Positions 1,848-56,881 of a stretch of 64,000 nucleotides of DNA are shown one piece after another; the stretch's first letter is position 1, and each line of letters begins with the position of its first letter. The translations under genes and the position numbers were made by a program. Below the pieces are notes generated by a model. That model saw only the letters and a list, made by a program, of their open reading frames with translations. It ran no database searches and was not told where the DNA came from. Source of the stretch: Pseudomonadota bacterium (lineage in GTDB: Bacteria > Bdellovibrionota > Bdellovibrionia > Bdellovibrionales > Bdellovibrionaceae); assembly GCA_041178425.1 (NCBI GenBank), contig JBEGVH010000031.1:1-64000 (forward strand), in the 5' to 3' direction.

Positions 1848-2528
1848 CTATTTTTTTAGAATTAATGATCGCGAAAAATCTTCTGGATTTTGAAGAATTT
1901 CTCCGTCTTTCTGGTGATCTTTTTCAGAGGCCGGCCCCCTCTCCATTTTCACTCGCTCAGATTCGGGCCTAATATTTTTTTTGTATTGAGATTCCACTAA
2001 AATCAATAGATTGTCGACTTCGCGTTCAATGAGAGCTTCTGCACCTATTTCTTCAATCTTTTGAACTTTTTCTTTTTCAGAAGTTTTAACGAAGGTTCGC
2101 TCAGGAAATCGATAGCGAAGGATAGTTTGTTTTTTATCAATGTTTTCGTATAACTCAGAAATTTCTTTATAAACTTTTTCTATTTTCTTTTCTGTCTCTT
2201 GAAAAACAACAGGATTTTTGGTCACTTCTTTTTCAAGAATTAGTTTTTTTAGTTCATCTTTTTTGATTTTGATCTTTGCATTGAACTGCTCAATGGCTGA
2301 TTTCACCTCGAGGTACTCATCTTTTTTAATGAACCCCCCACCGCCACCATGATCTCCGCCCTCTTTTTCTGAGCCTCCACCGTGATCTCCGCCGCCACCG
2401 CCGTGATCCTCGGCTATGGAGCTCAATGGAAAAGACACAATGGCCACGAAGATTGCTATGATGATCTCCAAAAAAAGAAGCGAAGGATTTGGTCGTCTAG
2501 ATTTTAGATTCGGAATCACTCTCAACAT
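1848..2528 (-). CDS. Hypothetical exported coiled-coil protein with DH-G repeats
   Basis: Hydrophobic N-terminal segment, DHGGGGGDHGGG..DHGGGGG, Lys/Glu-rich helical body; overlaps the upstream gene. Confidence 0.7.
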   Translation of the reverse strand: MLRVIPNLKSRRPNPSLLFLEIIIAIFVAIVSFPLSSIAEDHGGGGGDHGGGSEKEGGDHGGGGGFIKKDEYLEVKSAIEQFNAKIKIKKDELKKLILEKEVTKNPVVFQETEKKIEKVYKEISELYENIDKKQTILRYRFPERTFVKTSEKEKVQKIEEIGAEALIEREVDNLLILVESQYKKNIRPESERVKMERGPASEKDHQKDGEILQNPEDFSRSLILKK

Positions 2529-3219
2529 ACACTTCCCATTTTAACTCAATAGGCTGTGCTTTCAAAGAGTTGATTATATAACTAGCTTTTATTGCATTTA
2601 GTCCGCTGATAGTAACCTGGCCATCCGATATCGAATCTGATACTTCGTCATTAACTAGGCCTAGTCTATGATCTAGTAGGGCCGCAAGAATACTCTTGCG
2701 GAGGTCAGAAGAGTCTATGCCAGCTATATTAATTCGATACATTGTCGTACCTAGATCTCCCATTTTGGGGGGAGACCCTGCGGAGAATTGTGTATCTGGG
2801 TTGGCTTGAGAAAAATCTTGTTCCCAAGGGGCCGGCGTTTCGAGCTCCTGCGATTGAGAATCAAAAGAATAACTCTGTTGTTTGGCCAATTCTTCTGAAT
2901 CGGAACTAAAAGGACGATCTCCACTGGAACCATCGTTATCTGAATTGGTCGCACCCTCAGTAAACGCTGACTCCGGTTCAGAAGGTTCTCCCGCGGAGAA
3001 ACCCTGCTCCCCCTCCGGTACCTGAATTTGCGAGTAGGAGTCTTGGGGTAACTCAATGTCTACCAAAGACTCTTCACGAGATTCTTCTTCGCTTCCGCCC
3101 ACAATGATATTTCCAGAAAAATCAACAAAGAGGACTGTTTGGCAATGAAGACATTGAATCATTCCAAAGGTGGCATCAATCCGGTTACTACAAACGGGAC
3201 AATGCCACTGTTGACTCAT
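2497..3219 (-). CDS. Hypothetical protein: N-terminal Zn-ribbon, acidic linker, small C-terminal domain
   Basis: CPVC-x14-CLHC at the N-terminus; ATGA overlap with the secA stop. Confidence 0.75.
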
Positions 3220-7295: not shown

Positions 7296-8501
7296 TTACT
7301 GTACAAGAAAATGATTCGTATAAATCCAAGGAATCCAATGGGTTTTTTCCGGGATTGGCAATTCAACCTTTAATCTAACAACAAATCGATAACTTCCCGT
7401 CTGCTCAAGACTGATATCAACATCACGTCCAGGCAAGGTCTGCACAATCTCCCCATCCCTATAAACTATTATCTCTGCTGGACTAGTCACTGGAGGAACT
7501 TCAATATGAAATTTCATTTTGTTTTTTAACCGAACAGTGCTTCCCATGAGGTAAAGCTGGTCATCATCTTGAATCACTACGTTGAATCCTTTTGGATTTC
7601 CCAGAACATCTAGCGAAAAATAAAACTCTCCCTTTCTAAGGGCTTTAAGAATTTTAATTTTATCACTCGTCACGTTTCCGGTCAGTTCTGAGCGCAAGAG
7701 CACGTGCTCTGATCCTAACCTAAATAGAGTTTCATAATTCGGAAATTTTATGACGGAGCCCGTGATTGGAATAGCCTTTGCCGTAGCCTCTAAACCTAAA
7801 TGTCCGGTGACTACCCTCGTTCGATTAAGTGAGCTCCAGAGTTGTATTTCCTCATTCGGCTCCGCGAAAAGACGAATAAAAGCTAGCTGAGGGTTAAAAG
7901 GATAAATGAGAAGACTCCAAAACGATGACAACTGTGAGGTTAAAAAATGTTGCTGCTGTACACGCTTGAAATTAATGACCTCGAGCCCGTCGAGACCTAT
8001 GGGCCACTCTCCCGACCAGCCATACCCCTTCAAATAAGGATGCGCCAAAACAAGCTGCGAATCTCCTCTTGATTCCAAAGGCTGAGAAAGTAAATCTGTC
8101 AGATGCACTTGGATTTCACCGAGTGAGGCGGCCTCTGGAAAGGCATCACTTCGATAATATAAAAGACGCGAGTCAAGATAGCTAAACTTTTTTCCCCTCA
8201 GAACCAATAGATCACCGTGATAGCCTTCCGACTCTTGATGACCATCGATGACATTGTAGTCAGTTATAAAAAGATAATCGAGTTCGGCTTGCTTGGCCTC
8301 TTCAATGACTTCGCGATCAGATCCGCTTCCGAGACTTCGATTGGTAGAGACATTAGTAACTCCTCGATAGTCGAAAAAGGGGTAAGGGTGAGAATGATGT
8401 ATTGCTGAGTGCCCACGATCAACGGCATAGGTAGACACCATAAACCCGTAAATCAGATAAACTATGGCGAGGGAAAGTGTCCCCATATAAATCTTTATCA
8501 T
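7296..8501 (-). CDS. Membrane-anchored PHP-like (phosphoesterase fold) protein, degenerate
   Basis: YRG..,AELDYLFITDYN, VLAHP, DGLEVIN, ILKALRKG..Y and a terminal YTNHF, resembling CehA/McbA-type PHP proteins. Confidence 0.6.
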   Translation of the reverse strand: MIKIYMGTLSLAIVYLIYGFMVSTYAVDRGHSAIHHSHPYPFFDYRGVTNVSTNRSLGSGSDREVIEEAKQAELDYLFITDYNVIDGHQESEGYHGDLLVLRGKKFSYLDSRLLYYRSDAFPEAASLGEIQVHLTDLLSQPLESRGDSQLVLAHPYLKGYGWSGEWPIGLDGLEVINFKRVQQQHFLTSQLSSFWSLLIYPFNPQLAFIRLFAEPNEEIQLWSSLNRTRVVTGHLGLEATAKAIPITGSVIKFPNYETLFRLGSEHVLLRSELTGNVTSDKIKILKALRKGEFYFSLDVLGNPKGFNVVIQDDDQLYLMGSTVRLKNKMKFHIEVPPVTSPAEIIVYRDGEIVQTLPGRDVDISLEQTGSYRFVVRLKVELPIPEKTHWIPWIYTNHFLVQ

Positions 8502-18894: not shown

Positions 18895-21405
18895 TTACTT
18901 TACCTTGAACTTCACCTGAGAGCTTGTCATCACTAGGTTGCCTTGTTCGTCCAAGGCAGCCACTCTGATATAATAGGTTTTTCGACCCTCCAGTTTTTGA
19001 GGCGCTTGATTGGCTGTATTAACCGGATTCCAACCGCCATCGCCGTAGGGAAGATCTCGAGCGCCCGACTCCACCCGCCGATTCCAAAACCATGAAAAGT
19101 TAGCATCCTCTGAAATATCAACTATAAATCCACCCACCGAACCAGAGGCTTTCCATCCGAATTTTGGAAGGTATTTTACACGAACTGCATTATTGCCAGG
19201 TTTAGTAATTTCCACTTTCACAGCCAACTTTTCAGGTGACGATTGAACATCGAAGGAAACTGGTGCACTTTCATTGAGAGGCGTCCATTTGCCATCAAAG
19301 GTTCGAATCCGCACAAAGTAGGTTTTTCCACTCGCGAGCTTTTCAGGGGCATCGGTTTTTGTGTTTTTCTTTTCCCAACCGTCGTTTGAATAATCGAGTG
19401 ATCGGGCAAGGCCAATAACATTCTGACTCCACGACCATGAAAACTGTGGGTCTTCCGACAGGTCGACGATGAAGTATGATACTTCATCCCCTGCTGACCA
19501 ACTAAATGTGGGCTGACGGTCAGTAGGTTCCCCGGCGATGGGATAAGTAATTTTAGGAGCGCTGCCAGAAATGTTGATGATGGCAGAGGATTTTGTTGTT
19601 AGTGGCTGGTAAAGCCACGCCTTCGCTGACTTGCCTGAACGCAGCGATTGCCATTCCTCTGGCTTCAATGGAATCCGAAGGCAAAACAAAGGGTGATCGG
19701 TGGCGGCATCACGCTCATTCGAAACGTAGTGGACTGCTTTTAACGTAGCATCTGGTACTTCTGGATAGTAAGTAGTAGCTCCATTGGCCTCGCTCCACTG
19801 TACCTTTGCTTGAGTCTTTCGAGCAAAGGATGTTCCACAAAAGTGGACTCCTTGCTTTTCGGCAGGTCCTGAATCAACCAAATGGTACTTCAATAAATTC
19901 GGTACGACCAAGGGATCTTCCCCCTGCATCGAATCGGCAATAACGAGGGGACTAGAGTCCTCCTTTAGATGACGAAAGCGAAAGCTCCACGCATGAATAT
20001 CAATATTTTCGTTGGGGCTTGAGCTATTGCTCTGAGCCACAGTTCTGGGTAATGAAACCTGAAGTAACGTCTGATCAGAGAAGGGTGAAATTTCTCCTTT
20101 TTCATTTCCTACAATCCTGAAAGAAACCACTCCCGACAATAACGAATAGTTATTGGGCTCAACTCGCGCCGGAAAATCTGCAAGATAGAACTTATTGGTC
20201 CATTTTTGTAAATCCGATGAGCCAAAACTAACTACCCAACGAACTTGTTTTTTTAACTTCAATCCTTCATCAAGCTCGCGACTGAAAACGGCAAAGTATC
20301 CATCGTAGGGCGATCCTTTGTCTTTAACGATCTTTAAATCACCCGCAGGAACTTCAGCGGGAACCGACAGTCGCGAAAAGCCCACAGCATCTTGAGAGCT
20401 AAAATAAACCGCCCGTGAACATCGTGAGGATGCCGATGGGGACCACTTTCCCTCTTTTGTTTTTTCGTAAAGACAATTTTCTGGATTAGCAAAACCATCT
20501 ACGGCAGTCAGATAAATTTTGTCATTTTTAACCACGGCCGAAGGGGCCCCCACACCCCAAAAAATATTACCCATCGTCTCAGGCCCCCAATTATCCCGGG
20601 CCATCTTCTGTCCATCACGAATTCTCTCCGCATAGAGACTCGTATTATCAACCGACAGCGACTGAATCACTGGTTTCCAGGGTGATCGAATATTTCTGCT
20701 GGATTGCCACCCTTCCGTCGTCAGAATCTCAGCGGGACCGCCTAGTTTTGAACTTCGAGCCACATGTATAGCAACAAGATGGCCCCCAGCTTCCGATTCG
20801 GAAAATGATTCAAAGAAAGTATAGTAGGTGCCCTTAAATAAAACTGTCGAGCTAGCACAAGGCGCCTGAATAGCTTTCACTGTTTCGAAGTTTTGATTTG
20901 GTTTTGTTTCAAGTGCTGGGCTAATGAAAGTTCTAGAGATTCCCAGAGTCGCCAACGTCTTTGGGTCGAAACTTTCATAGCGAATCACGTCAGAACCATA
21001 AAAGGAATTTTTCTCAGCAATTCCAATTTCTAAACCTTCTCCGGGACTAAAGGGCTTCATAGAGCTACAATAAAATGTATGAAGCTGACGCCCTTCCACA
21101 AATGAAGATGGCCAACTAGCATAGTAGGAACCGCGCCGGTGAGCTTCAACGAATGGCCCCCTCGCTGTGATTTCAATTCCCTGATCCACTGGCCCAAATT
21201 TTTTTGCCGCAGCAACTTGAGTCTCCATCGGAAAACCAATTTTACTCAGGAGTGTCGATGGCGAGCTTGGCGAATTGGGATTTGAATAACTCCCTCCCAA
21301 ATCAGCTCCTGACTGCTGACAATTTTGAAATAAAACAATATTGACCAACGATACCAAGGAAAAAAAGAAAAGCATTTTCGCTCTTCGAGAAATTTGCAAT
21401 CGCAC
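18895..21405 (-). CDS. Large lipoprotein (FQNC lipobox): possible beta-propeller N-terminal region and two C-terminal Ig/Fn3-like repeats
   Basis: Signal peptide ending VLFQNC, SD AGGAAGGAG before GTG, two similar ~105-aa C-terminal repeats. Confidence 0.75.
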   Translation of the reverse strand: MRLQISRRAKMLFFFSLVSLVNIVLFQNCQQSGADLGGSYSNPNSPSSPSTLLSKIGFPMETQVAAAKKFGPVDQGIEITARGPFVEAHRRGSYYASWPSSFVEGRQLHTFYCSSMKPFSPGEGLEIGIAEKNSFYGSDVIRYESFDPKTLATLGISRTFISPALETKPNQNFETVKAIQAPCASSTVLFKGTYYTFFESFSESEAGGHLVAIHVARSSKLGGPAEILTTEGWQSSRNIRSPWKPVIQSLSVDNTSLYAERIRDGQKMARDNWGPETMGNIFWGVGAPSAVVKNDKIYLTAVDGFANPENCLYEKTKEGKWSPSASSRCSRAVYFSSQDAVGFSRLSVPAEVPAGDLKIVKDKGSPYDGYFAVFSRELDEGLKLKKQVRWVVSFGSSDLQKWTNKFYLADFPARVEPNNYSLLSGVVSFRIVGNEKGEISPFSDQTLLQVSLPRTVAQSNSSSPNENIDIHAWSFRFRHLKEDSSPLVIADSMQGEDPLVVPNLLKYHLVDSGPAEKQGVHFCGTSFARKTQAKVQWSEANGATTYYPEVPDATLKAVHYVSNERDAATDHPLFCLRIPLKPEEWQSLRSGKSAKAWLYQPLTTKSSAIINISGSAPKITYPIAGEPTDRQPTFSWSAGDEVSYFIVDLSEDPQFSWSWSQNVIGLARSLDYSNDGWEKKNTKTDAPEKLASGKTYFVRIRTFDGKWTPLNESAPVSFDVQSSPEKLAVKVEITKPGNNAVRVKYLPKFGWKASGSVGGFIVDISEDANFSWFWNRRVESGARDLPYGDGGWNPVNTANQAPQKLEGRKTYYIRVAALDEQGNLVMTSSQVKFKVK
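18898..19560 (-). repeat. Two tandem ~105-aa protein-domain repeats in the 836-aa lipoprotein
   Basis: FSWS..YFIVDLSEDPQFSWSW..APEKLASGKTYFVRI versus FGWK..FIVDISEDANFSWFW..APQKLEGRKTYYIRV. Confidence 0.85.
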
Positions 21406-33667: not shown

Positions 33668-35503
33668 TTAGTTGCCACTCATACCATTGAGGAATTCCTT
33701 GTTAGTTTTAGTAGACCCTAATTTATCCAACAAAAACTCCATGCTATCAATAACATTCATTGGCGCAAGGACCTTACGAAGGATCCATAAACGGTTTAAA
33801 TCTACCTTTTCGATCAATAAGTCTTCCTTACGAGTTCCAGATTTATTGATGTCCATACATGGGAAAATACGCTTTTCCATGAGTTTACGATCTAGGTGGA
33901 TTTCGGCATTACCCGTACCCTTAAATTCTTCAAAAATAACCTCATCCATACGAGAGCCCGTATCGATAAGCGCGGTAGCAATGATCGTCAAGCTGCCGCC
34001 CTCTTCGATATTTCTCGCCGCACCGAAAAAGCGCTTGGGTTTGTGAAGAGCGTTTGAATCCACACCGCCCGATAAAATTTTACCTGAAGGTGGAACAACA
34101 GTGTTGTACGCTCGTGCCAATCGCGTAATCGAGTCGAGCAAAATAACAACATCATGCTTGTGCTCTACTAAGCGTTTTGCTTTCTCAAGAACCATTTCTG
34201 CAACTTGAACGTGACGAGTCGGAGGCTCATCAAAAGTGGAGCTGACGACCTCCCCTTTTACGTTTCTCGACATGTCTGTCACTTCCTCAGGACGCTCATC
34301 GATGAGCAAAACGATGAGTTTAACATCGGGCTGATTGGCCGATATAGCATTGGCAATATTCTGCATCAAAACGGTTTTACCAGTACGCGGAGGAGCAACA
34401 ATCAACGCTCTTTGGCCCTTACCGAGCGGGGCCATCAAATCTACAACACGAGTGGTGTATTCGCCCGGATTATACTCTAAACGAAGCCTTTGGTTCGGAT
34501 AAAGAGGGGTGAGGTTATCAAAAAGAATCTTATCTTTGCTCTTCTCTGGTGTCTCAAAATTTAATGAGTCGACTTTTAAAAGTGCAAAATATCTCTCACC
34601 ATCTTTTGGCGGTCGCACAGTACCTGTAATTGTGTCACCGGTTCTCAAACCAAATCGGCGAATCTGGGAGGGGCTAACATAAATATCGTCTGGCCCCGGA
34701 AGATAGTTATAATCTGGTGAACGTAAAAACCCGTACCCATCAGGGAGAATTTCTAAAACACCACTACCATAAATGTCTTCCCCTAGGCGAGCCGCTCTCT
34801 TTAGGACTTCAAACACCATGTCCTGACGACGCATACCCGCAGCATTTTCAATTTTAAGCTTGAGGGCAAGATTTGTTAGATCCGCTATGTTTTTTGATTT
34901 TAAATCTTTAGAGTTGAGCTCGCTCTTTTCAGCGTCAGTCAAATTGATATCAGCTAAATCAACTTCGGAGTTCGCCTGAGGCTGAGATCCTCCGTCATTG
35001 CCTCCACCCGCAAAATCCTCTTGGCCATAACTAGAATGGCGGCCCGATTGCTGTCTATCTTGTCGGTGGTCTTGGCGATGATCCTGACGACCATCTTGGC
35101 CTCTGAAATCTTTGCGATAACCATCTTTACGATAACCACCATTATTGTTGTTATAGCGATTCTTATCAAATTTCTTCTGAAATCCCCCGCGATCCCGAGC
35201 TGGCTCAGAGGTTTCGGTATTTGGAGTGTTAGAGCCCGGAGTGGGCTGCTGAGAGGGCGTTGACTCCGCCGATTTCTCTATGCCTGGAGCAGCAGCTTGA
35301 TTAACGGAAGCCTTTTCTGTTGATTCGGAATGAGATGCCGCAGCGGCAGCCTCTAACGGTGGGGGCGCGGAAACAAGTGCTTCATTTGATTGTGAAATTT
35401 GTTCGGCGCTGCTCTCTGAGCTTGAAGCTTCTTTTTTGGCATCGATAGCCTTTGTTCTTCGAGGCTTCTTAACCTCTGCGCTTGCATCTTTAGTTTCAGA
35501 CAA
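33668..35503 (-). CDS. rho: Transcription termination factor Rho with long N-terminal low-complexity extension
   Basis: [49 protein letters not shown] 6 nt before TTG 35503. Confidence 0.98.
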
Positions 35504-35742
35504 AGGGAACTCCTTGATAATCGGTATTGAATAAGTAAGATTGCAAATAAAGATTTGTACTAATGACGTCTTTGACCATTTTAGGTTGGCCTCAAACAAG
35601 ACCTTTGTCAACTTGAAACTTTTTGAGCCGGGGAGGGGTAGCCTAAAGGGCCTGCAAAATCTTAAAATAACTCGCTTTATTGTACCAAATCGATAAGCCC
35701 ACTGATTTTTTAAAATAATTCCAGTATCTGGTTCATACTAAT

Positions 35743-42438: not shown

Positions 42439-44469
<2,031 letters not shown>

Positions 44470-44519
44470 AGACAAGCCCTCTTGCCCTCTCCCCCTCGAC
44501 TTTTTGAGCCTAAAACAAC

Positions 44520-44714
44520 TTAGATGTGGTCAATAATAATATCGCGAGCCATTACGGTCTTGCGACCATCAGCCTTAGCTGATTCAATGCCACGAATGCA
44601 AAGCTGCTCAATCGCTTTACTGAGTACATCTATCGTTTCAGCAGATGTATTCATTTCGCCTTTTTCCTTAATAAACTTTTTTACCTTACTGGTTACTACC
44701 AAAACGTCTGACAT
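44520..44714 (-). CDS. Bacterial histone (Bd0055-like singlet histone-fold protein)
   Basis: 64 aa; VLVVTSKVKK.IK...MNTS...L...A...GRKTVMARD with the histone-fold RKTV..D (R-D clamp) motif; GGAGG SD. Confidence 0.93.
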   Translation of the reverse strand: MSDVLVVTSKVKKFIKEKGEMNTSAETIDVLSKAIEQLCIRGIESAKADGRKTVMARDIIIDHI

Positions 44715-44801
44715 AGTTCCTCCGCCGATGGTTTCACCTATGAATTGAAATACAAAGGAAGACTATTTTCAATAGAAGTTTTGCTGGGTTGCATTTATTT
44801 T

Positions 44802-46754
44802 TTATTCAAAGCTTGCTTGAACGACCTGAACCGAATCACGCTGAGGCTTCACTATTCTACCCAAAGCCCTGCGATTCCTACGAGAATAGACAATTAGGTT
44901 GGGTGAGTCCTGCTCAAGATTGAAAATTACGAAGCCACCACCATTGACGCCCCGCTCAACAGGCTTCCCCGTTGGATCAAAGTAAACAGTTTTTGATTTA
45001 GAGTTCTTATTGGGGATTTCCACAAAGAAATCCTCTCCTTGCACAAACCCAACGATACTACCGGTATCCAACTCTTCATTTATTTTTAACGATGCTCGCA
45101 TTTCCTCGAGCCACTCCCTTGGAATCAAGGGAAGATGAAGATAATCTAAAAGGTGATGATAGCTTAAATGCATTGGCTCATAACCCGCCTCAGGCAAAAC
45201 ATTGATAAACGATATTCCTTTTGTTTTGGGAATCTCAAGCACAAGGGCGCCCGTTGGGTCTAACTCGAAGATGTCGTTTAACTGCTGAACCTCAATTTTC
45301 GCTGGACGAGACTGCCCAGAGAAAGCATCAAAACTTCTTACCGTGATGGAAGCCGCCTCCGTTGGAGTTTCTGCAATGATGTTGGTTACCTTACCCGGGA
45401 AAAGAAGCACATTTTGGTGGTAGCCCTTCCCGTTTGGTAGGCCTATATAGAGATCCTGCCAACCATGCTGGCTCCCAACAATGGTAAACATTCCGTTTTC
45501 TGAGGTTTGCTGCTGAGTGCGATCTGGCAGGTAAAATCCACCAAAATAACTTGTTGGGCCCAAGGAAGAAATCACTGTTGCTCCTTCAACAGGGCGCCCA
45601 CTGGCCTGAATCACACCATAGATAAGTGAATCTCCACGATCCAAATCAAGAGAAATATCGCTTTCATTCAATATCTCGCGAAGCCCCCAGATCATTCGCT
45701 CGGGTAGAAGCATTACATCAGACCCTGCTCCTATATCTACTAAGGCTACCGAATTACGATGATTTTGAGATTGCCCCTCAACCACTAGCTGCGATTGTGG
45801 ATCGAACTCATTCACCTCGTAGTCACTCTCCAAAGCAGAGCCAAACCCCCAGCTCGTTGCAAGACCTAGTGTTGCTTTAAGCTGTTCGGATTTTCCATAG
45901 GCTGAACTCACTCGCACAGGCAACTTTTGAGCCGTTCTTTTTAAAACTAGTTTTGCACCCTTAGCTAATAAAAGATCCGAAACCGAAATTAACCCTTCAC
46001 CTTCGACGCCACCCCTTTGATTGGTTAAACGACCAACAACGACTCCACGGGTGCTATTAACCTTCATCGAAAAGGTTCCACGATTAAGATCAATCGCAGC
46101 CACTTCTTTAGCAACACCCTCTTCAAAACGTCTCACATCAATAAAATGTTTATCCGTAAGGGCAAGACTGCCATCTCGAACAAATTCGATTTCGCCTTCA
46201 ATCGCTAGCCCTTCTTGTCGCTGTAAAGGTGCTTGCTCTGGTTGTTTGTTTTCAGCCAAAACTTCTCTAAGACGGTCACCCAGCGCTTGATTTTCGGTGG
46301 CCGGATGAATGTCCTCTATTTGTAGGCCTCGACGTTCCTTTGCTAATTTTAATCTCAGCTTTTCCTCGTCATTAAAAATATTGGGACCTTCACTGAATTC
46401 TTGGGGTCCGCTATTTGCTGTAATGATTGGTGATTGTGGCTCAACTTGCTCCAGAAAACCAAAACTTAATTCTTCTAACTGAAGCAGCTCAAGTTCAGGT
46501 GGACCAACTTTAAGCTCAATAACTGTATCAGCGTTGCTTTGCTCGATGACAACGCCTTCTTCGTCGAGGATCTCAAGGGCCATGGACGGTGGAAATTTTT
46601 GCGAAAGATTTAAATCTATTTTTTCAACTCGGAAGCCTAGGTCATCGCGACCTAAAGAGGGAGCGTGCAAACAAGTCCATGCCACCAATGCTAAAAGCAG
46701 CAGTGAATGAACTAAGTTTATTTTGCTAAAAAAGCTCCGGTGGTTCATTAACAT
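44802..46754 (-). CDS. Hypothetical membrane-anchored/exported protein with beta-sandwich (carboxypeptidase-regulatory-like) segments
   Basis: 650-aa ORF, N-terminal hydrophobic helix, G.PVEGATV...T.ENG.F motif; start ATG 46754 or 46748. Confidence 0.75.
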   Translation of the reverse strand: MLMNHRSFFSKINLVHSLLLLALVAWTCLHAPSLGRDDLGFRVEKIDLNLSQKFPPSMALEILDEEGVVIEQSNADTVIELKVGPPELELLQLEELSFGFLEQVEPQSPIITANSGPQEFSEGPNIFNDEEKLRLKLAKERRGLQIEDIHPATENQALGDRLREVLAENKQPEQAPLQRQEGLAIEGEIEFVRDGSLALTDKHFIDVRRFEEGVAKEVAAIDLNRGTFSMKVNSTRGVVVGRLTNQRGGVEGEGLISVSDLLLAKGAKLVLKRTAQKLPVRVSSAYGKSEQLKATLGLATSWGFGSALESDYEVNEFDPQSQLVVEGQSQNHRNSVALVDIGAGSDVMLLPERMIWGLREILNESDISLDLDRGDSLIYGVIQASGRPVEGATVISSLGPTSYFGGFYLPDRTQQQTSENGMFTIVGSQHGWQDLYIGLPNGKGYHQNVLLFPGKVTNIIAETPTEAASITVRSFDAFSGQSRPAKIEVQQLNDIFELDPTGALVLEIPKTKGISFINVLPEAGYEPMHLSYHHLLDYLHLPLIPREWLEEMRASLKINEELDTGSIVGFVQGEDFFVEIPNKNSKSKTVYFDPTGKPVERGVNGGGFVIFNLEQDSPNLIVYSRRNRRALGRIVKPQRDSVQVVQASFE

Positions 46755-46862: not shown

Positions 46863-47363
46863 TCACAAATAGGTTTTTGAAATAATCGTTTTTCCTTGGC
46901 CATAAAACTCGACATTAGTCACATTCGTCTGATTCATTATTCTATCCAAGGTCTGGCCCATGATTGGATGATGAAAAGAGCGCCAAACCTCCCAGGCACA
47001 ATAAAGCCAGGAGGTGTCTGCAATCATGTTTGGATGGGGAAGCGTCACCGCCGGTGTTATAAAAACAGTTTGATCGTAAACCATTAAAAAACACTTCATG
47101 GGTTCGATGACTTTCATGGTTTCATCAAAACGCTGTTCAATTTTTTTTAGCTCATCAATAACTTTTTCTGCCGACCACGAGGTGGAGAGTTTTAAAACCA
47201 CCCGTAAATTAGGATGCTCACTTCCAATGCCCGACTGAACGACCGTTGAAGCTGAGAGAATCTCGGCGAAGTCGTTTAACTGATCGATAGTCCAACGGAG
47301 AATGTCCAGCCCTTTCAAAAGTCCGGCTTCAATTCCTACGAGTATTTGTGAACTCTCTTCCAT
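46863..47363 (-). CDS. HPPK (FolK)-fold protein lacking catalytic residues
   Basis: Spacing matches HPPK, with L..IE, TLPHP and E....HP....L retained; PRTLDLD is replaced by PMKCFLM. Confidence 0.6.
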   Translation of the reverse strand: MEESSQILVGIEAGLLKGLDILRWTIDQLNDFAEILSASTVVQSGIGSEHPNLRVVLKLSTSWSAEKVIDELKKIEQRFDETMKVIEPMKCFLMVYDQTVFITPAVTLPHPNMIADTSWLYCAWEVWRSFHHPIMGQTLDRIMNQTNVTNVEFYGQGKTIISKTYL

Positions 47364-51629: not shown

Positions 51630-53981
51630 TTACTGCGGACCGTAGCCCTTAACTAGCACTTGTCGTGGCTTACTCCCATTTGCACCGCCGATAACACCCT
51701 CTCGCTCCATGATCTCTATAAGTCGAGCCGCTCGAGGATAACCCAATCGATACTTCCTTTGAAGAAGCGAGGCACTGATCTCTTTGACGGAAGAGGCAAA
51801 AGCAACTACCTCATCATACATCTCATCGTATTCATTGTCTCCGCCAGAGGAATCGTCAGAAAATCTATTTTCTCTGTCACCATTATCTTCTAATAGGCTC
51901 ATCAGATGGGCGTCATACTGTGGCTCTGATTGTTCACTCCAGAATTGAGCCACTTTATTAATTTCAGCATCAGATAACCATGGCCCATGATGCCGGACGG
52001 GCTTATCCGTTCCAGGGGCTCGAAATAACATATCCCCCCTCGCCAACAATCTCTCAGCGCCTGATTCATCGAGAATAATTCGCGAATCCATTTTACTTGC
52101 AACCTTAAAACTAATTCGGCCAGGGATATTCGTTTTAATTAATCCAGTAACGATTTCTTTTCGCGGACTTTGCATACAAAGCGTTAGATGAATACCGCAG
52201 GCCCTTGCCAATTGGGCGAGTCGAACTACACTCTGTTCGACATTATCCGAGTCAATTTGCATTAGATCGCCAAATTCTTCGACGACAATAACTAGGTATG
52301 GAAGCTCTTCAAAATAATACTTTTGATTTTTCTTATTTTTATCCTCTAATTCATCATTTGTTTTTTTATGAGCTTCTTTGTCTTCTGAGGACAGAGCCTT
52401 CACTGTTTCATTGTAGGCCTCAAGCCCACGGGCACCAAATTTGGACATTGAGCGATAGCGCTTGTCCATTTCTTTAACGGCCCAGCGGAGAGCTGCAACT
52501 GCCTTTGGCGTTTCAACAATGGGCGGCAATAACAAGTGAGGAATTTGGCTGAAGGCTGCCAGATCCACCTGCTTTGGATCAATTAAAATCATTCGCAGTG
52601 TTTTTGGTGAATGCCTGAAGAGCAAACCCGTAATCGTAGAAACAGTGAAGACCGACTTTCCTGACCCCGTTGACCCAGCAACAAGCAAGTGAGGCATCTT
52701 TCTTAAGTCGACAATTTGCGGATCTCCATTTGTTTGTCGCCCTAGTGCGATAGGGAGCTTCATGTCGTCTTTCCAAAAATCCTCCTCTGCCAGGAGGTCT
52801 TTTAGATAAACGGTTTCTCTTGTCGTATTAGAGCTTTCAATGCCAACAACATCTCGCCCAGGGATGGGCGCGATGATTCTTAGCGATTCACTTGAGAGAG
52901 CAATCGCTAAATCGTTTTCCATACTTGTTATGTTACTGAGCTTTACTTCAGCGTTGGGCTTGAATTCAAACATCGTCACGGCGGGGCCCGACTTTACGGC
53001 CACCACGTTCCCAGTCACATTAAAGAGTTTGAGCTTCTCTGTTAATTGCTCGGCTTTTCGCTTGAGTTCCTCTTTATCCACTTTTGCACGAGTTGCAGGA
53101 GGATCTTCGAGCAAATTGAGTTTGGGCATATTCCAGTTTTCAATCCTCGCAGGTACATGGGATTTAAGAATCACTTTTCGCTTTGGCGCCGTCTTCAAAG
53201 CTGGAGCCACCTGGGTCGATGCCTCGGCGTCCTCCTCTTCGTCATTGCTCTGCACTGAAAATTCAGCAGCCACCGATTTTTCAGATTTTTTCGCAGGAAC
53301 AACCTCTTTAATCCGCTTTGTGACTACGTTTTTCAGCTTCTCTTGGAGAGTCTCAGACTCTGAGTCTTTTTCTAATTTATATTCTATGGCTTTAAAGGGA
53401 TCATCTGTATCCTTGGTCGATTTTTTATCCAAACGCGCTTCTTTTGGAAAAAAACCTAAGACGAACTCATAGAGCTCTCTGAGATTTTTTTGAGTAAGAA
53501 CGACCGCCAACACAGCGACCCCAACCCATAGAAGAATCTTTGACCCTATCGGGTTAAGGATTCTCTCGAGACCGCGCCCGATGAGATCTCCAATTAAGCC
53601 GCCTACTTGAATATTATTATTGTAGAAGAGTGCATCGCTAAAATGAAGCTGCATCAAACTGGTTGCAATCAGAACTAAGGCTAAAAACGGTAGAAACTGA
53701 ATGTGTTTTGCCGTTGGTAGGCGGCCGCGAACACCATCAACTCCATAAAAACCAAAATATGGAACCCAGAGCCAACTTCCAAGCCCAAAGAGGTGAAACA
53801 CGGAATCCGACCAAAAGCTCCCCACAAGGCCACATAAGTTTTGTGCCCTCATAAACGTCAAATGATTGAAAGAGGGATCCGTTGGGTTGTAGCTATAGAG
53901 TGACAACAGTGTCACAGTAGACATAAGTAAAAAACCGATCCCAACAAGGTCTGAGTAAAATTTTCCAATCCATTTTTTCAT
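51630..53981 (-). CDS. ftsK: DNA translocase FtsK
   Basis: N-terminal TM region, PHLLVAGSTGSGKS, IDPK, SRIILD..GAE.LL..GDML, gamma domain SASLLQR...GY.RAAR. Confidence 0.97.
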   Translation of the reverse strand: MKKWIGKFYSDLVGIGFLLMSTVTLLSLYSYNPTDPSFNHLTFMRAQNLCGLVGSFWSDSVFHLFGLGSWLWVPYFGFYGVDGVRGRLPTAKHIQFLPFLALVLIATSLMQLHFSDALFYNNNIQVGGLIGDLIGRGLERILNPIGSKILLWVGVAVLAVVLTQKNLRELYEFVLGFFPKEARLDKKSTKDTDDPFKAIEYKLEKDSESETLQEKLKNVVTKRIKEVVPAKKSEKSVAAEFSVQSNDEEEDAEASTQVAPALKTAPKRKVILKSHVPARIENWNMPKLNLLEDPPATRAKVDKEELKRKAEQLTEKLKLFNVTGNVVAVKSGPAVTMFEFKPNAEVKLSNITSMENDLAIALSSESLRIIAPIPGRDVVGIESSNTTRETVYLKDLLAEEDFWKDDMKLPIALGRQTNGDPQIVDLRKMPHLLVAGSTGSGKSVFTVSTITGLLFRHSPKTLRMILIDPKQVDLAAFSQIPHLLLPPIVETPKAVAALRWAVKEMDKRYRSMSKFGARGLEAYNETVKALSSEDKEAHKKTNDELEDKNKKNQKYYFEELPYLVIVVEEFGDLMQIDSDNVEQSVVRLAQLARACGIHLTLCMQSPRKEIVTGLIKTNIPGRISFKVASKMDSRIILDESGAERLLARGDMLFRAPGTDKPVRHHGPWLSDAEINKVAQFWSEQSEPQYDAHLMSLLEDNGDRENRFSDDSSGGDNEYDEMYDEVVAFASSVKEISASLLQRKYRLGYPRAARLIEIMEREGVIGGANGSKPRQVLVKGYGPQ

Positions 53982-54109
53982 ACCCTTAATTTCTCTTATC
54001 GGAAGCGCAAACAAAAGCAATTCTCTTACAAAAGCCTAGAAGTAAGACCTTTGACGGGGATTTTCGCTTTTCAATCTTCTAGTATTCGTAGTAAGTCTCG
54101 ACTCGACTT

Positions 54110-54849: not shown

Positions 54850-55218
54850 ATGTCAGTCAATTTGACGCCCAATGTGAACCCATCATCGCCAACCGTTCAG
54901 CCTGTAGTTCACACTGCTGCAACTGGGCCAGACAATCTTTTTGTTGCTAACTTGTCTTCTATCAGCCTTGAGGAGCTTGTTAAACGCCGCCTCGAAGTAC
55001 ATTTTCAACAACAATCGGCTGTCGATGTTGATGCGGGTGGCTTGAAGCTTTATGACGTGGTTCTTCAACAGGTTGAAAAGCCCTTACTTGAGCTTGCGCT
55101 CAGAGCGACAAACGGCAACCAAGTAAAAACAGCCCAAATGTTAGGTATCAACAGAAATACTCTTAAAAAGAAAATCGATTCATACAAGATTCGCGTTAAA
55201 AGACTCGGAACGATGTAA
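54850..55218 (+). CDS. fis: Fis-like DNA-binding protein
   Basis: LYDVVL.QVEKPLL..AL..TNGNQ...A..LGINRNTL.KK. Confidence 0.85.
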   Translation: MSVNLTPNVNPSSPTVQPVVHTAATGPDNLFVANLSSISLEELVKRRLEVHFQQQSAVDVDAGGLKLYDVVLQQVEKPLLELALRATNGNQVKTAQMLGINRNTLKKKIDSYKIRVKRLGTM

Positions 55219-55468: not shown

Positions 55469-56881
55469 ATGTCATTTGATCCTAAATTGCCTCCCCAAAA
55501 TATTGAAGCTGAGCAATCTATTCTCGGAGGTCTACTTCTCGACAAAGAAGCCTGGGATCAAGTTTCTGATATAATTACAGCAGAAGATTTTTATCGACCC
55601 TCTCATCAAAAATTGTTTGAAGCTATTGCGCACTTACACCGTAGCAGTAAAGAAGTCGATATCATCACTGTTCCAGATTATTTAAAATCTAAAGGTGAAT
55701 TTGACCAAGTTGGTCCGGATTACATTATTCAACTCGTACAGAATACAATAACCACAGCCAATATTGCTACCTATGCAAACATTGTAAGAGAGCGGTCTTT
55801 ACTTAGACGATTGATACAAACTTGCACCGGCATAATTCAAAAATCCTATAGTCAGGATTTTGAAAATGTGGAAACCTTTGTGGATTCTGTTGAAAGCGAA
55901 ATTTATAAAATCAGTGAGAGCCGGGAGTCTTCGGGTCTAACTGAAGCCGCCGACATCGTTTTCAAGAGCATGGAAAAAATCGAACAGCTCTATCATCAAC
56001 AAGCCGACCTCACTGGCATATCAACGGGATTTAATCGACTCGATCAAATGACCTCGGGATTACATCCTGGGGAATTGACGATTATTGCTGCTCGTCCGTC
56101 CATGGGTAAAACGGCCTTTAGTTTGAATATTGCTCAACATGCGGCACTTCGACAAAAAAAATCTGTTGCTTACTTCTCTGTGGAAATGAGTAAAGAATCA
56201 GTCATGATGAGGGTTCTTGCCTCTGAGGCTAAAATTAACCTTGGCGACATAAGAAACGGTCGTGTGCCCGATTCCGCCTGGCCCAAATTAGTCGCTGCTG
56301 CCTCCATGATTAGTGAGGCCCCATTGTTCATTGATGATACCTCGGGCGTGAGTCCTGCCGAAATTCGAGCACGTTGCCGGAGACTAAAAAAGCAAAATGG
56401 GCTTGATCTCATCATGATCGATTATTTGCAGATTATGGATTTAAAACAAAAAGTAGAATCCAGGGAACGTGCGGTTTCTGAAATATCGCGCTCCCTAAAA
56501 GCTATCGCAAAAGAGCTACAGGTTCCCGTTATAGCGCTCGCTCAGCTCAATCGTTCAGTCGAGGGTAGGGCAGAAAAAAAGCCAATGCTGTCAGATCTGC
56601 GTGAATCTGGGTCGATTGAACAAGACGCTGACGTTATTATGATGCTTTATCGAGAAGGTTACTACGATAGGGCCGATGAAGGAAAAGCAGATCATGCTGA
56701 AATCATCATTGGCAAACAGAGAAATGGTCCAACGGGTTCAGTCGATCTCAAGTGGGAACCTAAATTCGGACGTTTTGCAGATGCTGACGAGATGCCTCAG
56801 GCGCCTCCGCCACCCCCTCCGATTCCACTTCAACCGGGTGGCCGACCCAAGAATTTTGCCCCTGGCGCAGGAGCACAATAG
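55469..56881 (+). CDS. dnaB: Replicative DNA helicase
   Basis: PPQNIEAEQ, ARPSMGKT, IDYLQ, QLNR, DLRESGSIEQDAD, KQRNGP. Confidence 0.99.
   Translation: MSFDPKLPPQNIEAEQSILGGLLLDKEAWDQVSDIITAEDFYRPSHQKLFEAIAHLHRSSKEVDIITVPDYLKSKGEFDQVGPDYIIQLVQNTITTANIATYANIVRERSLLRRLIQTCTGIIQKSYSQDFENVETFVDSVESEIYKISESRESSGLTEAADIVFKSMEKIEQLYHQQADLTGISTGFNRLDQMTSGLHPGELTIIAARPSMGKTAFSLNIAQHAALRQKKSVAYFSVEMSKESVMMRVLASEAKINLGDIRNGRVPDSAWPKLVAAASMISEAPLFIDDTSGVSPAEIRARCRRLKKQNGLDLIMIDYLQIMDLKQKVESRERAVSEISRSLKAIAKELQVPVIALAQLNRSVEGRAEKKPMLSDLRESGSIEQDADVIMMLYREGYYDRADEGKADHAEIIIGKQRNGPTGSVDLKWEPKFGRFADADEMPQAPPPPPPIPLQPGGRPKNFAPGAGAQ

Follow-up and report, generated by a model that had tools for sequence, protein, structure and literature searches.

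A 64-residue orthologue of the Bdellovibrio bacteriovorus histone Bd0055/HBb at a conserved position beside ligA

The 64-aa protein P0001, encoded on the minus strand of the 64,000-nucleotide stretch of DNA that was analysed as a whole (the window), is the positional orthologue of the Bdellovibrio bacteriovorus histone Bd0055/HBb. It is the counterpart of a protein that has already been crystallised, and an expected gene of its bacterial group rather than a discovery. The initial annotation had proposed a Bd0055-like bacterial histone at this place, and the proposal is borne out by the identity and equal length of the two proteins, by the Foldseek search, by conservation and by the dimer model. 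The gene translates into 64 residues followed by a stop codon and the product is a stand-alone singlet histone fold of about 64 aa, with no extra domain or tail. The coordinates of the gene and of the features discussed with it are collected in Table 1.

Table 1. Features of the histone locus and its surroundings (window positions, except the last line, which gives a position outside the window in the same genome).
Feature	Position	Strand	Basis or remark
P0001, Bd0055/HBb orthologue, alpha3-truncated 'bacterial dimer' histone, 64 aa	44520..44714	-	sequence, conservation, model
Shine-Dalgarno GGAGG	44719-44723	-	5' of the histone ATG
Overlapping frame opposite the histone gene, 74 aa	44524-44748	+	open antisense frame
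AT-rich inverted repeat, 32 bp, upstream of the histone gene; candidate operator, variant promoter or hairpin	44743..44774		genus conservation
ligA, NAD-dependent DNA ligase, convergent neighbour	42448..44469	+	Pfam; synteny
Conserved 650-aa protein, in no Pfam/NCBIfam family; immediate upstream neighbour of the histone gene in the genus	44802..46754	-	context
Divergent folK/HPPK-like gene	46863-47363	-	under both cut-offs
ftsK	51630-54020		neighbourhood annotation
Fis-like HTH gene	54850-55218		64 bits, below the NCBIfam Fis cut-off of 99
dnaB	55469-56881		neighbourhood annotation
rho ORF	33668-35611	-	647 aa
purE / response-regulator site (L116)	G000:C6:95361-97139		no ZZ histone

Using P0001 as a phmmer query against the PDB, we obtained end-to-end, ungapped alignments to 8FVX and 8CMP with E-values of about 1e-32 (1.2e-32 for 8FVX), which is the significant alignment to Bd0055 on which the earlier assignment depended. 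As counted from the phmmer alignment, 55 of the 64 residues are identical to 8FVX (86%), and the two proteins are of equal length. The match to HBb reached 112 bits and the next one 32 bits. The entries 8CMP, 9EZZ and 9F0E are given as HBb structures in PMC11317129, and when the P0001 model was submitted to Foldseek the top five matches were all HBb chains; 8FVX is labelled as the B. bacteriovorus histone. The sequence of 8FVX is found unchanged in three loci of the collection (L044, L046 and L047), which show the same gene order as the P0001 locus. As these loci share the flanking order, P0001 is therefore the positional orthologue of Bd0055.

The assignment to a class points in the same direction. 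The 'bacterial dimer' histones are defined in PMC11390915 as a category by sequence similarity (clustering) to HBb, and P0001 falls within it by its similarity to HBb and by its grouping with the singlets, apart from the ZZ domains. In the histone tree, all 83 singlets are split from the 4 ZZ-type domains at 100/100, while 47 of the 84 branches are open, the bootstrap is not settled and the relationships among the singlets are unresolvable.

The residues known to matter in HBb were then compared. The DNA contacts are given in PMC11317129 as T8, S9, K10, K12, K16, N22, T23, S24, A25, K52, T53 and R57, the clamp as D49/R51/D58 and the dimer core as V11, L31, I35, L38 and I59. P0001 carries 12 of the 12 DNA-contact residues, the clamp and the whole dimer core, and its nine differences from 8FVX all lie outside the published contact and core residues. 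Among the orthologues of the best 80 of 300 loci, 11 of the 12 contact residues are invariant in 80/80 and A25 is kept in 75/80; D49, R51 and D58 are likewise invariant in 80/80 of the same best 80 of 300. The RKTVMARD sequence, residues 51-58, presents the RKTxxxxD motif with the RD clamp (R51-D58), together with D49. Regarding the fold, the monomer was modelled with mediocre quality (pLDDT 72.9, TM 0.62-0.65 to HBb), showing two long helices, at residues 2-18 and 25-48, and a third helix of one turn at 56-58. A short alpha2 and a one-turn alpha3 are indicated by this model, by the ungapped alignment to HBb and by the aligned stretch, which is four residues shorter than in HMfB. The 64-aa ORF with a strong Shine-Dalgarno sequence, a helix pattern and RKTVMARD that had been described at first sight was thus confirmed, with GGAGG lying 4 nt before the ATG and the third helix reduced to one turn.

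When two copies of P0001 were modelled together, the score was 0.78 compared to 0.00 for the best control, with a pLDDT of at least 85 and with at least 91% of the contacts shared between runs; the mark used is reached by 20 of 30 solved homodimers and by 1 of 23 monomers. The handshake dimer, without which the histone assignment was to be given up, is therefore predicted, with cross-chain L1-L2 contacts between residues 22/23 and 53/54. The homodimer pass may well reflect memory of, or likeness to, the solved HBb dimer.

By analogy with HBb, we consider it very probable that P0001 would be an abundant dimer that bends or coats DNA non-specifically, forms no nucleosomes and works beside HU/IHF. 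Two chains would assemble head-to-tail into a histone-fold homodimer, as modelled here and as solved for the 86%-identical HBb. Judging from the conserved residues, this dimer would bind the phosphate backbone of DNA, whatever the sequence, by means of its paired L1-L2 loops, with N22-A25 contributed by one chain and K52/T53/R57 by the other, and the T8-S9-K10 patch of alpha1 would also bind DNA. P0001 lacks the tetramer-forming residues and for this reason would not be expected to form nucleosomes or hypernucleosomes. If it behaves like HBb, it would bend DNA in the manner of HU/IHF at low occupancy, may coat DNA as a filament at high occupancy, and would be an abundant, probably essential nucleoid protein alongside HU/IHF. 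For HBb itself, a bend of about 84 degrees per dimer was reported by Hu et al. (PMC11317129) and an edge-on sheath at saturation by Hocher et al. for Bd0055 (PMC10627809); the bending and filament models conflict in the literature as represented by PMC11317129, PMC10627809 and PMC11390915. The triple substitution S45F/A48H/I61L makes Bd0055 wrap DNA according to Hocher et al. (PMC10627809), and P0001 is wild-type, not F/H/L, at S45, A48 and I61.

These readings presuppose a real gene, and the 64-codon ORF is a genuine gene and not a chance frame, because pN is far below pS and the stop is kept as codon 65 in 80/80 orthologues. Both values come from the best 80 of 300 loci confirmed in the genome collection, where the median pN is 0.098 and the median pS 0.82, uncorrected and with pS saturated. 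The homologue search retained 1138 proteins from 1139 candidates, the best 120 being 84-100% identical. GGAG or GAGG precedes the gene in 80/80 orthologous loci (best 80 of 300), and the pairing energy with the anti-Shine-Dalgarno sequence is equalled or exceeded in 154 of 1588 long ORFs of the genome, a rank that is flattered by the first-ATG starts used for the background. A spurious ORF, or a real gene lying instead in the overlapping plus-strand frame of 74 aa, could appeal to that open antisense frame and to profile scores slightly below the Pfam cut-offs, namely 20.2 against 21.4 bits for PF00808 (CBFD_NFYB_HMF) and 18.7 against 21.8 bits for PF09123 (DUF1931), and below that of the NCBIfam archaea_histone model (28.8 against 50 bits). 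These three models are generic or archaeal, and such scores fit the earlier remark that the family is usually annotated as hypothetical. Against this reading, besides the homologues and the conservation of the P0001 frame, stops interrupt the plus-strand frame in 51 of the 80 orthologues (best 80 of 300 loci) and its codon score is -0.20. It is refuted by conservation and we give it practically no probability.

It is very improbable, too, that P0001 forms tetramers, either face-to-face like HLp/HTkC or nucleosomal like HMfB, and wraps DNA. Weak similarity to such proteins exists, with E-values of 5.5e-7 for HTkC (9f2c), 2e-4 for HLp (9qt0) and 0.2-0.8 for HMfA/B, but HBb is far closer, its 112 bits standing against at most 32. 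Face-to-face histones form tetramers and wrap DNA according to PMC12701072, while the bacterial dimers are described in PMC11390915 without the face-to-face residues R48/N52. The corresponding residues of P0001, as inferred from the HTkC alignment, are S45 and D49, S45 occupying in the phmmer alignment the place of the HTkC arginine; at residue 48 P0001 has alanine and not histidine, and its alpha3 has only one turn. The HBb-like, non-wrapping dimer is thus retained as the preferred reading. The weight of this dimer in the cell is a separate question, since the initial annotation had concluded that the organism uses histone-based chromatin. A role of P0001 as principal chromatin protein, with a genome that is mainly histone-organised, is possible, although we find it doubtful. 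The strong Shine-Dalgarno sequence, the distance of about 40 kb from dnaA and the status of sole histone-fold gene found in the genome speak for it. On the other side, the genome holds three HU/IHF-family genes (PF00216), of which the HU-like one scores higher in codon usage, and a Fis-like gene is also present. The codon score of P0001, 0.003, exceeds 1478 of 1578 background windows and is lower than both the HU-like gene (0.082) and the 10th percentile (0.037) of 30 reference genes; these reference genes (ribosomal proteins, EF-Tu and EF-G) and the HU/IHF labels were assigned by eye. A 2025 preprint (10.1101/2025.09.24.678257) calls the in vivo function of Bd0055 unknown. With a codon score below nine-tenths of the reference set, with HU/IHF genes present and with the in vivo role so described, the earlier conclusion is not sustained as it was worded, and histone-based chromatin in this organism is plausible.

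The gene neighbourhood is conserved. The end of ligA lies 50 nt from the stop codon of the histone gene, in convergent orientation, and among the loci of the best 80 of 300 whose downstream flank reaches 3 kb or more (13 shorter loci left out), 64 of 67 have a convergent ligA downstream, the exceptions being L037, L056 and L076. Past ligA the order continues as gatCAB-ppx-DUF192-LysM, and the dap block lies upstream of the histone gene. The histone-ligA gap behaves as a variable insertion site, holding 390-4115 nt of other DNA in 22/64 loci (L036, L039, L044, L080, L091 and others). A functional link between histone and ligA was rejected because the genes are convergent and 22/64 loci have 0.4-4.1 kb of other genes between them. 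No paper bearing by title or abstract on the ligA/gatC synteny was found; the supplements of the histone papers may show gene context.

On the other side of the gene, the conserved 650-aa protein is encoded in 66/80 histone loci (best 80 of 300), and its gene directly adjoins the histone gene in 3/59 informative loci, all three of the same genus as the present genome. Two genes that usually stand before the histone gene, one Mur-ligase-like and one for a metallophosphoesterase, are gone from the site in this genus. A weak lead associates the 650-aa protein with carboxypeptidase-regulatory-like domains (Atlas feature score at most 0.88, full-length TM at most 0.33). The folK/HPPK-like gene of Table 1 scores under both of its cut-offs (22.7 < 25.7 and 18.1 < 54.1) and is syntenic in 41/80 histone loci (best 80 of 300).

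Fis, FtsK, DnaB and LigA had been noted to lie within about 12 kb. Their positions stand, and no functional signal attaches to them, the region being an ordinary housekeeping block near dnaA, which is found at about 84 kb of the same contig and thus 40 kb from the histone gene. A functional cluster of Fis, FtsK and DnaB with the histone was rejected because they are 7-12 kb apart from it, with unrelated housekeeping genes between; fis and dnaB lie beyond the 10-kb flanks used for synteny. The block also holds gatCAB, ppx, rho, the dap genes, the folK-like gene and queE. The Pfam domains of the rho ORF start at residue 236, pointing to a long N-terminal extension or to an upstream start call. 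Elsewhere in the window, long minus-strand ORFs at 18895-21405, 7296-8501 and 1848-3219 (836, 401, 240 and 226 aa) have no Pfam match at E 1e-5.

We also investigated the sequences flanking the histone gene. The motif TTGTCA, 12 nt, TATGnAAnnnT was found upstream with at most 2 mismatches in 59 of 110 loci, which include duplicates and kin, compared to a shuffle mean of 0.58 and a maximum of 2. L032, L036, L039, L044, L046 and others carry this motif, which is often preceded by GCGCCGC. It is probably an extended -10 promoter of the sigma-70-like kind, the putative Bd0055 promoter. The present genome shows no match to this family motif upstream of its histone gene. Its genus carries there the 32-bp inverted repeat, present in 5/5 genus genomes with 25 invariant columns, invariant arms and a variable spacer, at a variable distance to the histone start codon and with one perfect copy per genome. 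Of 116 loci, 108 lack the repeat, and the 8 matches are the five genus genomes, three of them fetched twice. A regulon of the repeat was not found, matches with at most 2 mismatches being about as numerous as with the reversed-pattern control. We offer, as a speculation that is more probably wrong than right, that in this genus the promoter-like motif may have been replaced by the inverted repeat as operator of a dedicated dimeric regulator, which would subject histone dose to a specific transcriptional control, possibly one tied to the cell cycle; in the present genome this would go along with loss of the ZZ-type histone.

Neither promoter nor terminator sites turned up in a scan of positions 44300-45100 (shuffle means 1.6 and 0.7, respectively), and no intrinsic terminator was detected in the 50-nt ligA-histone gap, positions 44470-44519. 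A terminator-like hairpin lies downstream in 62/80 orthologous histone loci (best 80 of 300), for a shuffle mean of 6.1, and an identical test gives none at the P0001 locus. Neither the ligA-histone gap (z 0.49 and -1.30) nor the histone upstream region (-1.13) folded significantly, and Rfam gave 0 matches across the whole window. No paper bearing on the histone-gene promoter was found by title or abstract.

The 64-aa singlet was recovered in 38 of 40 related genomes, from genus to order, at 70-94% identity. PMC10627809 reports histone folds in 1.86% of bacterial genomes and Bd0055 homologues in 67% of Bdellovibrionota. The family, first presented as rare in bacteria, is thus rare overall but near-core within its clade. 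The two remaining genomes, G019 (72% complete) and G036, have only a longer paralogue. Being of the same order and 99% complete, G036 may represent a natural loss of a supposedly essential gene, or an assembly gap.

Longer histone paralogues, in frames of 147-209 aa, occur in 20/40 relatives, and a Cys/His-rich N-terminus like that of ZZ histones was present in both sequences viewed (four inspected). A ZZ-type gene occurs in 3 of the 4 congeners of the present genome. In the genome itself (100% complete, 43 contigs) no ZZ-type histone was found, the ZZ domain giving a best E-value of 2.0, and the P0001 gene is the only histone-fold gene found. The search for a second histone fold gave one match, at E 0.21 and with internal stops, and the profile search gave none; a 769-aa frame carries two weak PF00808 matches (E 0.04 and 0.57), which were rejected as noise. 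At the purE / response-regulator site, the congener G002 has a ZZ-type histone and the present genome a DUF455 gene together with a RelE/HigB-like plus HTH antitoxin pair.

Bacterial histones are a young and interesting field, and the way in which HBb acts on DNA in vivo, by bending or by sheathing it, is still debated. To this question P0001, 86% identical and with no functional residue changed, adds almost nothing. The comparative value is modest and lies in Bd0055 being a near-core, positionally fixed gene of the Bdellovibrionales. The conserved motifs upstream of the gene, of which one is family-wide and the other specific to the genus, are usable to study histone gene regulation.

Compared with known systems, P0001 has in common with HMfA/HMfB the histone fold, the L2 RKT motif and the RD clamp, at about 28% identity, whereas it lacks the tetramer histidine and the full alpha3 and its aligned stretch is four residues shorter (11-60 against 8-61). 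It shares with HLp (Leptospira, 9QT0) and HTkC (Thermococcus, 9F2C) the short alpha2, the truncated alpha3 and the RKT motif; these, however, are tetramers wrapping DNA, and P0001 is just 36-42% identical to them and lacks their conserved Arg (S45 position). The ZZ histones, which would be of the Bd3044 type, combine an N-terminal zinc finger with a bacterial-dimer-like fold. Their histone domain is about 50% identical to P0001, which is without the ZZ finger and falls on the other side of the 100/100 split.

The closest system is Bd0055/HBb (PDB 8FVX, 8FW7, 8CMP, 9EZZ, 9F0E; PMC10627809, PMC11317129, PMC11390915). In comparison with it, P0001 has nine substitutions (S2, D3, F14, E20, I40, R41, I43, I60 and I64) and a net charge of +1 instead of +2, a value within the orthologue range (17/80 in the best 80 of 300 loci). 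Upstream, the control region has given way to the genus-specific inverted repeat, the locus has no detected downstream terminator and has lost two upstream neighbour genes from the site, and the genome has no second (ZZ-type) histone that we could find. In the same way as Bd0055/HBb, P0001 has 64 residues, keeps all DNA-contact, RD-clamp and dimer-core residues without those for tetramers, and is encoded between the dap block and the convergent ligA-gatCAB.
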